Source of the DNA: Escherichia coli
GTDB lineage: Bacteria > Pseudomonadota > Gammaproteobacteria > Enterobacterales > Enterobacteriaceae
Assembly (NCBI RefSeq): GCF_050920415.1
Contig: NZ_CP169309.1
DNA length: 64,000 bases
Reading direction: 5' to 3' (one strand)
Each line of letters opens with the position of its first letter. Position 1 is the stretch's first letter. This document shows positions 7,935-46,057 of this stretch, piece by piece. The position numbers and the translations under genes were made by a program. Below the pieces are notes generated by a model that saw nothing but the letters and a program-made list of their open reading frames with translations, had not been told where the DNA came from and ran no database searches.

Positions 7935-9374
7935 TTACTGCAACCAGGTCGCGGCGAATACGCTGGAAATCAGCGACATCACAATCAGTACAATCAACAC
8001 CAGGCGCATTGATCCTGGCAGCGGTGCGGCATCAGCGACGGCCTCGCTCGGTTTGCCAGGCACAACGCGACCAAACCAGCGAATAAACCAGGCGAAACTG
8101 GCAATCGATTCAATCATCAGCAGAATCATGGCGGGCAGCAGGATCCAGTACTCCACTGACAACGAAAAACCGGCAGCAAACAGTGGGAATTTACTGAAGA
8201 AGCCGTTGAACGGCGGCACGCCAGTAATCGCCAGCGCGGCCACGCAGAAACCCACGCCTGGCAACGGCAGGGTGTGCAATACGCCACGCAGACGCGGCAA
8301 CAAGCGCGTGCCGCAGCTGTAACTCAGCGCACCGGCTACAAGGAAAAACAGGCTTTTAGCGAACGCGTGGTTGACGATGTAGGCGATGCTGCCCTCCAGT
8401 GCCAGCCGCGAGCCGAAGATGGAGAGCGACAAGCCGAAGAACATCCAGCCAAGTTGAGTGATGGTCGACCAGGCCAGCAACCGCTTCATATCCTGCTGCG
8501 GCAAATACATCAGGAAGCCGTAAAGAATGGTGACCAGTGCCATGACCATGCCAACGCCGCCAATCACATGCGGGATATTGCCGCCGTCGATAATGGCGCG
8601 GGCAAAAATGTAAACGCCCACTTTCACCATCGATGCGGCGTGGAGATAGGCGCTGATCGGTGTTGGCGCTTCCATTGCATCCGGTAGCCACGCTTGCATC
8701 GGTAGCTGGGCCGATTTCCCCCACGCGGCAAACAGGATGCCACCATAAACCAGATAGCGTGCGTCGCCGTGTAACTCGCTCATCGCGCTAAGCGCAAACG
8801 TTCCGGTCTGCAAAAACAGCGTGGCGGCGGCAAGATACAACCCCAGCGAACCGATATGAGTGATAAGTAACGCTTTTAGTGCTGAACGTTGCGCTTTATC
8901 GCTCTGGTAATAACTGATCAACGCCCAGGAGCAGCCGCCCGTAATTTCAAAAAACAACAACTGACCGAGCAGCGTCGAGGAGAGTACCAGTCCCGCCATC
9001 GCGCCGATAAAAACCAGCAAAAATGCGTAATAACGATTCGTGCCGTTATGCGGGTGTTCGCGATTTTTATCCGTCAGATAACCCGTGGAGTAGATCGTGA
9101 CCAGCAAACCGAGGAACACCACCACAAACAGAATCAGCGTACTCACGCGATCAATGATCAGGCCAAACAACGCCACATCCCCCACGTTGACCAACGTCAA
9201 CGTGACGGCAACTTTATCGGCCTGATAAAACGCGGAGATCAGCGACAACATGCACAGCGTGGTCAGCGCGGCGAACAAAATCCCCCATTCGGCGGCCCGA
9301 CGTTGTGGCGAAAACGAAACGACCAGTGCGCCGATAAAAGGCAGCAATAACGTCGTCAGAGCAAGATTTTCCAT
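7935..9374 (-). CDS. hyfD: Hydrogenase-4 membrane subunit (NuoL/M/N antiporter-like)
   Basis: 479-aa polytopic membrane ORF. Confidence 0.9.
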   Translation of the reverse strand: MENLALTTLLLPFIGALVVSFSPQRRAAEWGILFAALTTLCMLSLISAFYQADKVAVTLTLVNVGDVALFGLIIDRVSTLILFVVVFLGLLVTIYSTGYLTDKNREHPHNGTNRYYAFLLVFIGAMAGLVLSSTLLGQLLFFEITGGCSWALISYYQSDKAQRSALKALLITHIGSLGLYLAAATLFLQTGTFALSAMSELHGDARYLVYGGILFAAWGKSAQLPMQAWLPDAMEAPTPISAYLHAASMVKVGVYIFARAIIDGGNIPHVIGGVGMVMALVTILYGFLMYLPQQDMKRLLAWSTITQLGWMFFGLSLSIFGSRLALEGSIAYIVNHAFAKSLFFLVAGALSYSCGTRLLPRLRGVLHTLPLPGVGFCVAALAITGVPPFNGFFSKFPLFAAGFSLSVEYWILLPAMILLMIESIASFAWFIRWFGRVVPGKPSEAVADAAPLPGSMRLVLIVLIVMSLISSVFAATWLQ

Positions 9375-15319: not shown

Positions 15320-16354
15320 ATGGCTTACTCTGTTCAAAAGTCGCGCCTGGCAAAGGTTGCGGGTGTTTCGCTTGTTTTATTACTCGCAGCCTGTAGTTCT
15401 GACTCACGCTATAAGCGTCAGGTCAGTGGTGATGAAGCCTACCTGGAAGCGGCACCGCTTGCGGAGCTTCATGCCCCGGCTGGAATGATTTTGCCGGTGA
15501 CCTCCGGTGATTATGCAATCCCGGTGACCAACGGTAGTGGTGCTGTCGGTAAGGCGCTGGACATTCGTCCACCAGCCCAGCCGCTGGCACTGGTTTCTGG
15601 CGCGCGTACCCAGTTCACGGGCGATACCGCTTCATTGCTGGTGGAAAATGGTCGTGGCAATACTCTGTGGCCGCAGGTGGTTAGCGTGCTGCAGGCGAAA
15701 AACTACACCATCACCCAACGTGATGATGCGGGTCAGACGCTGACCACCGATTGGGTACAATGGAACCGTCTGGACGAAGACGAGCAGTATCGTGGTCGTT
15801 ATCAAATCTCTGTTAAGCCGCAGGGTTATCAGCAGGCGGTTACGGTTAAACTGCTGAACCTGGAACAGGCGGGCAAACCGGTTGCAGACGCGGCTTCCAT
15901 GCAGCGTTACAGCACGGAGATGATGAACGTTATTTCCGCCGGTCTGGATAAATCTGCCACTGACGCCGCGAACGCTGCGCAAAATCGTGCCTCCACCACT
16001 ATGGACGTACAAAGTGCAGCTGATGACACCGGTTTACCGATGCTGGTCGTACGCGGGCCGTTCAATGTGGTTTGGCAACGTCTGCCAGCGGCGCTGGAAA
16101 AAGTGGGCATGAAAGTGACCGACAGCACCCGTTCGCAGGGCAACATGGCCGTAACTTACAAGCCGCTGTCTGACAGCGACTGGCAGGAACTGGGCGCGAG
16201 CGATCCAGGCCTGGCATCCGGTGACTATAAACTGCAGGTTGGCGATTTAGATAACCGCAGCAGCCTACAGTTCATCGATCCGAAAGGTCATACTCTGACT
16301 CAGAGTCAGAACGACGCGCTGGTAGCTGTCTTCCAGGCTGCGTTTAGCAAGTAA
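15320..16354 (+). CDS. bamC: Outer-membrane protein assembly lipoprotein BamC (NlpB)
   Basis: Starts [27 protein letters not shown] (lipobox); 344 aa. Confidence 0.95.
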
Positions 16355-16362
16355 AAATACAG

Positions 16363-16388
16363 GGCTGGAGTCATCCGGCCCTTTTTTC
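16363..16388 (+). terminator. Rho-independent terminator after dapA-bamC
   Basis: Hairpin GGCTGGA-gtca-TCCGGCC followed by CTTTTTTC. Confidence 0.55.
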
Positions 16389-16397
16389 TGATATGAT

Positions 16398-16413
16398 ACG
16401 CAAACGTGTGCGT
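16398..16413. promoter_or_regulatory. PurR operator (PUR box) upstream of purC
   Basis: ACGCAAACGTGTGCGT matches the 16-bp palindromic PurR box consensus ACGCAAACGTTTGCGT. Confidence 0.7.
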
Positions 16414-16459
16414 CGGCAGAAAAATGCGATTTTGGCGGTAATTCGCACGAAATTTGTTT

Positions 16460-16500
16460 GTCGGACGTAGGGCGGATAAGGCGTTCTTGCCGCATCCGAC
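16460..16500. repeat. REP (repetitive extragenic palindromic) element
   Basis: GTCGGACGTAGGGCGGATAAGGCGTTCTTGCCGCATCCGAC, typical E. coli REP palindrome. Confidence 0.7.
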
Positions 16501-16566
16501 AAAACATCCGGCACACCAGACAGCAAAAGATTTTAAAACGTTAATTCACACCCAGGAGTGATAAAG

Positions 16567-17280
16567 ATGCAAAAGCAAGCTGAGTTGTATCGTGGTAAAG
16601 CGAAAACCGTATACAGCACGGAAAACCCGGACCTGTTGGTGCTCGAATTCCGCAATGATACGTCAGCAGGGGATGGCGCGCGCATTGAGCAGTTTGATCG
16701 CAAAGGTATGGTGAACAACAAGTTCAACTACTTCATTATGAGCAAACTGGCTGAAGCGGGTATCCCGACTCAAATGGAGCGTCTGCTCTCCGATACCGAA
16801 TGTCTGGTGAAAAAGCTGGATATGGTGCCGGTTGAGTGTGTCGTGCGTAACCGTGCTGCTGGCTCTCTGGTGAAACGTCTTGGAATCGAAGAAGGTATTG
16901 AGCTGAACCCGCCGCTGTTCGATCTGTTCCTGAAAAACGACGCCATGCACGATCCGATGGTCAACGAATCTTACTGCGAAACCTTTGGCTGGGTGAGCAA
17001 AGAGAATCTGGCGCGTATGAAAGAGCTAACCTACAAAGCGAACGACGTGCTGAAAAAACTGTTCGATGATGCTGGTCTCATTCTGGTCGACTTCAAGCTG
17101 GAGTTTGGTCTGTACAAAGGCGAAGTGGTTCTGGGCGATGAGTTCTCCCCGGACGGCAGCCGCCTGTGGGACAAAGAAACGCTGGAGAAAATGGATAAAG
17201 ACCGTTTCCGCCAGAGCCTCGGTGGCCTGATCGAAGCCTATGAAGCCGTTGCCCGCCGCCTGGGTGTACAGCTGGACTGA
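16567..17280 (+). CDS. purC: Phosphoribosylaminoimidazole-succinocarboxamide synthase
   Basis: Starts [31 protein letters not shown]; 237 aa. Confidence 0.95.
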
Positions 17281-21120: not shown

Positions 21121-21205
21121 CTGGTAGGCCTGATAAGACGCGTGAGCGTCGCATCAGGCATCGTTCACCATTGCCGGATGCGGCATTAACGCCTTATCCG
21201 GCCAC
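21121..21205. repeat. REP elements (pair)
   Basis: GCCTGATAAGACGCGTGAGCGTCGCATCAGGC and GCCGGATGCGGCATTAACGCCTTATCCGGCC palindromes between convergent ypfH and ypfN. Confidence 0.7.

Positions 21206-45870: not shown

Positions 45871-46057
<187 letters not shown>

Follow-up and report, generated by a model that had tools for sequence, protein, structure and literature searches.

The 64,000-nucleotide stretch of Escherichia coli DNA analysed here (the window) carries a 16 bp near-palindrome in the spacer between bamC and purC, and the question that it raises is whether this sequence is the operator of purC, and if so at which step of transcription it would act. PurR is the LacI-family purine repressor, and purC with its PUR box has been a textbook member of the pur regulon since 1990; the original footprinting and fusion papers are said to be those of He et al. 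and Tiedeman et al. in 1990, with the 1990 studies of He and of Meng reportedly the primary fusion studies. The 16-mer is almost certainly the operator by which PurR, with hypoxanthine or guanine as corepressor, represses purC, probably at initiation. The purC operator is already known, and it is found here in a strain in which it is identical to that of K-12. Its value is that of a positive control, in which a true regulatory site could be recognised and placed from sequence alone, and the additions made by the present work are descriptive: the -6 to +10 geometry, a terminator in the -35 space, a box that is frozen across genera, and a REP insertion in the leader.

The PUR box between bamC and purC

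The list of open reading frames gives the gene order dapA-bamC-purC-ypfJ-tmcA in the window, which is also that of K-12 MG1655, and a 501-nt query around the box finds a match in 5425 of the 5426 complete E. coli genomes, with bamC and purC annotated (Table 1). The purR gene lies outside the 64-kb window; since the window is E. coli, the genome of this strain presumably carries it, and in K-12 it is about 0.86 Mb from purC, going by the coordinates that Cho et al. 2011 (PMC3159470) tabulate in their Table 1.

The sequence ACGCAAACGTGTGCGT at 16398-16413 matches the ideal PUR-box palindrome ACGCAAACGTTTGCGT at 15 of 16 positions. The sole deviation is at box position 11 (16408), where a G stands for T, and the central CpG is kept at box positions 8-9 (16405-16406). 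The initial annotation had placed a 15/16 match at exactly these coordinates and described it as lying upstream of purC, and both particulars are borne out, the box ending 154 nt before the purC ATG. No other site within three mismatches of the palindrome turned up when the whole 64 kb was scanned.

A PurR weight matrix was trained leave-one-out on the 27 ChIP-supported motifs other than that of purC which Cho et al. 2011 tabulate (their Table 1). Read on either strand, the purC box outscores every other site in the window (18.6 and 17.0 bits, with a runner-up of 13.7 bits), so that the matrix scan suggested in the initial annotation does rank it first, and its 18.6 bits fall between the lowest and highest scores of the 27 training sites (11.3-25.0 bits). 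The exact p value of this score, computed by dynamic programming, is 2.9e-7, which amounts to E=0.037 over the whole window, and a site scoring as high turns up in 5.3% of 300 dinucleotide shuffles. The matrix score on its own is therefore suggestive and modestly significant across the window, and to this extent it leaves room for a chance resemblance to the PUR box that has no regulatory role. Against such a resemblance, none of 100 dinucleotide-preserving shuffles of the window contains a match to the palindrome at one mismatch or fewer, and the box lies in the 213-bp bamC-purC spacer directly before a purine-biosynthesis gene, within which the expectation for its matrix score falls to about 1e-4. 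The near-perfect palindrome taken together with its position makes a chance origin untenable, and we regard that explanation as exceedingly improbable; the in vivo occupancy of the identical K-12 sequence and its invariance across genera, both described below, weigh against it as well.

The next matrix matches in the window are at 8792-8807 on the minus strand (ACCGGAACGTTTGCGC, 13.7 bits) and at 1899-1914 on the plus strand (AGTAAAACGATTGCCG, 13.1 bits). Neither is retained as a further PurR site, as scores of this size are at chance level for 64 kb (E of about 0.9).

Table 1. Features of the bamC-purC region, in window coordinates.
Feature	Position	Strand	Basis
bamC CDS, gene preceding purC, with its terminator next to the purC promoter	15320..16354	+	ORF list, RefSeq annotation
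bamC intrinsic terminator, hairpin (16361-16382) and T-run behind it	16361..16388	+	terminator scan
Probable extended -10 of purC, TG-a-TATGAT, -15 to -7	16389..16397	+	sequence, spacing to published TSS
PUR box, assigned as PurR operator of purC, ACGCAAACGTGTGCGT	16398..16413	.	palindrome, PWM, K-12 identity, conservation
purC +1 (an A), seventh base of the box	16404	+	K-12 TSS carried over by identical sequence
purC 5' untranslated leader, 163 nt	16404..16566	+	published TSS, ATG position
Leader insertion, 103-nt period, REP-containing	16436..16551	+	repeat search, alignment
purC ribosome-binding site, AGGAG	16554..16558	+	sequence; GGAGT invariant in alignment
purC CDS (SAICAR synthetase), regulated gene	16567..17280	+	ORF list, RefSeq annotation

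The K-12 operator and the geometry of the promoter

Alignment to K-12 MG1655 shows an identical 16-mer at the same distance of 154 nt from the purC ATG. The bamC-purC spacer as a whole is 97% identical to K-12 over 256 columns, and nothing differs in the operator, in the -10 or in the distance from operator to ATG. The differences are at scattered leader positions (for example 16370, 16415 and several bases of the REP element), and the terminator is identical save for one loop base (G/A at 16370).

Published data for K-12 bear directly on this sequence. Table 1 of Cho et al. 2011 (PMC3159470) gives the purC PurR ChIP-chip motif as ACGCACACGTTTGCGT at 2,595,794-2,595,809 of U00096.2, which is the reverse complement of the 16-mer in the window and lies 154 nt from the K-12 purC ATG (2,595,640); in NC_000913.3 the site has the coordinates 2,597,772-2,597,787. 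The log2 enrichment of the purC peak is 2.08 in the presence of adenine and 1.52 in its absence, which is at the top of the scale in that study, in which the genes of the IMP pathway are reported to be repressed by PurR. Freddolino et al. 2021 (PMC8282354), who use the purC promoter as the illustrative example of their paper (Fig 1C), report IPOD-HR occupancy on the annotated purC PurR site in rich medium; this occupancy is gone in delta-purR and in minimal medium, and the RNA polymerase signal at purC is higher in delta-purR. The earlier statement that the box agrees with the known PurR regulation of purC thus holds, with the same 16-mer in K-12 lying under a ChIP-chip peak and showing purR-dependent occupancy. 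The comparison with mapped PurR sites that had been proposed likewise leads to this 16-mer and not to another position. Carried over from K-12 by sequence identity, the functional assignment would apply equally to the present strain.

The start point of purC transcription falls within the box. Kim et al. 2012 (PMC3415461, Table S1) list a K-12 purC start at 2,595,803 (-) with 24 reads and a 5'UTR of 163 nt, and their '-50 + TSS' string for purC ends ...CTGATATGATACGCAAA. With the corresponding base of the window as +1, the operator spans -6 to +10. The -10 hexamer (16392-16397, -12 to -7) abuts the operator directly; its designation as the purC -10 follows from its spacing to the start point and is probable, and in the alignment many genera keep the TG and a -10-like hexamer, either in the same columns or in neighbouring ones.

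The space in which a -35 element would be expected is taken by the bamC terminator, whose hairpin is conserved across genera with compensating changes, and the match to TTGACA there is at most 3/6. A generic promoter scan of 16250-16650, which requires at least 4/6 in both hexamers, returned no sigma-70 promoter. The scan misses the purC promoter because its -35 is poor and its -10 is extended, and the promoter call accordingly rests on the published start point and the extended -10, on which the promoter appears to rely.

A plausible scenario for repression can be drawn from this geometry. A PurR dimer carrying hypoxanthine or guanine as corepressor would bind the near-palindrome and, occupying -6 to +10 and touching the extended -10, would cover DNA that RNA polymerase must melt and enter. 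Bound PurR would then exclude the polymerase or stop open-complex formation, and initiation would be blocked. When purines are scarce PurR would leave, and purC would be transcribed from 16404 with its 163-nt leader. Steric exclusion at initiation is suggested by the geometry, and it fits the higher polymerase signal at purC in delta-purR.

Like the boxes of purF, purMN, purL, purHD, purEK and purT, which are bound by PurR in vivo and repressive (Cho et al. 2011, PMC3159470), the purC box is a member of the 16-bp palindromic family ACGNAAACGTTTGCNT, which has a CpG at its centre. At the symmetric 6/11 position it has C/G (ACGCACACG... when read on the other strand), and of the 28 motifs listed only that of gadX has this too. 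Cho et al. place PurR sites in general between -35 and -10, whereas the purC box overlaps +1, although repression would still be at initiation. The same authors describe PurR sites of purB and purR that are within the open reading frame and block elongation. The purC operator resembles these roadblock operators in protein and motif and in lying partly in transcribed DNA; unlike them, it sits on the start point and abuts the -10, and it is expected to act at initiation.

Conservation of the box across Enterobacterales

Within E. coli the region is nearly invariant. Of the 5416 E. coli records that match, 5361 show no difference in the 40 nt over the T-run, the -10 and the box; counted against all genomes, at least 5361 of 5426 share these 40 nt unchanged. 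Only one of the rare E. coli variants was inspected, that of strain MEW (L122, NZ_CM192120.1 2009369-2009641), in which an IS200C-family insertion lies directly upstream of TTCTGATATGAT. The insertion replaces the terminator and the -35 side of the purC promoter and leaves the -10 and the PUR box intact.

A broader view is given by 120 Enterobacterales purC loci from GTDB species genomes, which were chosen by a degenerate 10-residue coding motif and not by the box, and in which the 450 nt upstream of each purC start were scanned with the PurR matrix. A site of at least 17 bits is present in 89 of the 116 analysable loci, where about 0.1 would be expected by chance. Upstream of purC, 66 of the 120 loci have the exact 16-mer, 65 of them in the same orientation and one inverted. 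These loci represent about 20 named genera, including Citrobacter, Salmonella, Klebsiella, Raoultella, Enterobacter, Kluyvera, Kosakonia, Buttiauxella, Trabulsiella, Pluralibacter and Siccibacter. All 16 bases are thus invariant, whereas the flanks vary, being only about 60% conserved over 12 columns on each side and dropping to about 40-55% in the columns directly beside the box on both sides.

A different arrangement is seen in 24 Erwiniaceae-type loci (Pantoea, Erwinia, Tatumella, Rosenbergiella and Mixta; L011, L012, L015, L027, L031, L032, L034, L040, L044, L049, L051, L054, L056, L060, L061, L066, L072, L075, L097, L100, L107, L114, L115 and L117). These carry a different and stronger PUR box, A[AG]GTAAACGATTGCGT and close variants, which scores 22-24.5 bits and lies 42-66 nt from the inferred start. 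Two of the 24 (L066 and L117) are labelled Enterobacter, have the Pantoea-type arrangement and may be mislabelled.

These comparisons bear on a second explanation, in which the 16-mer is kept mainly for its part in the core promoter and in the first transcribed bases (-6 to +10), or as a target of some other regulator, and in which binding by PurR is incidental or secondary. The start point does lie inside the box, and the G at position 11 (+6), although off consensus, varies no more than the consensus positions do and is not obviously needed for PurR alone. The conserved block nevertheless coincides with the 16-bp PurR palindrome and ends where the palindrome ends. The Erwiniaceae have another sequence at the same position, and it is a better PUR box; one good PUR box has been replaced by another at the same place, which argues for selection on PurR binding and not on a particular transcribed sequence. 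Occupancy of the site, moreover, depends on purR. An explanation in which PurR is incidental is therefore very unlikely, and conservation of the 16-mer as a PurR operator is the preferred interpretation.

The G at box position 11 merits separate comment. It is invariant in all 66 loci that have this box, and the perfect palindrome is a single substitution away. One idea is that it reflects a second constraint on the operator, such as a sub-maximal affinity for PurR that sets the derepression threshold, or a need of the initial transcribed sequence (the A-start ACGUGUGCGU) in start-site choice or promoter escape; we offer this as a speculation that is unlikely to be correct.

In Pectobacterium, Brenneria, Winslowiella and Symbiopectobacterium (L013, L017, L028, L055, L071, L082, L083, L086, L096, L103 and L109), and in Mangrovibacter and relatives (L010, L019 and L062), no site above about 8-12 bits, and no PUR box above about 10 bits, is present in the 450 nt upstream of purC. 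Several of these low-scoring loci share an element, CGCAAAACGATGCG[CT]T, located 148-261 nt upstream, which resembles a PUR box with displaced half-sites.

The REP-containing insertion in the purC leader

The distance from box to ATG is 45-52 nt in most genera and 152-154 nt in E. coli and E. albertii. The alignment attributes this to an insertion in the leader. E. coli and E. albertii carry it, and it is missing from Citrobacter, K. oxytoca, Raoultella, Enterobacter, Kluyvera and others; in Salmonella arizonae this point is occupied by a different insert. The insertion is bracketed by a 13-nt imperfect direct repeat, with CGGTAATTCGCAC at 16436-16448 and CGTTAATTCACAC at 16539-16551, the two copies being 103 nt apart, and within it is a REP-type palindrome whose arms are at 16457-16465 and 16495-16503. 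It triples the purC 5'UTR, from about 55-60 nt to 163 nt. Because it is placed between the operator and the ribosome-binding site, the insertion lengthens the 5'UTR and leaves PurR control undisturbed.

An Rfam screen of the leader for a riboswitch or other known RNA gave only sub-threshold matches, to naRNA4 and to suhB (E=0.89). The naRNA4 match, which is REP-derived, is at 16470-16514 and scores 27.2 bits, below the gathering score of 59.5. The REP core words CGGATAAGGCG and CCGCATCCG also occur elsewhere in the window, at 21173-21200, 45927-45955 and 46027-46055. The copies near 45.9-46.05 kb form a tandem pair 100 nt apart, and all of these are ordinary E. coli REP/BIME elements.
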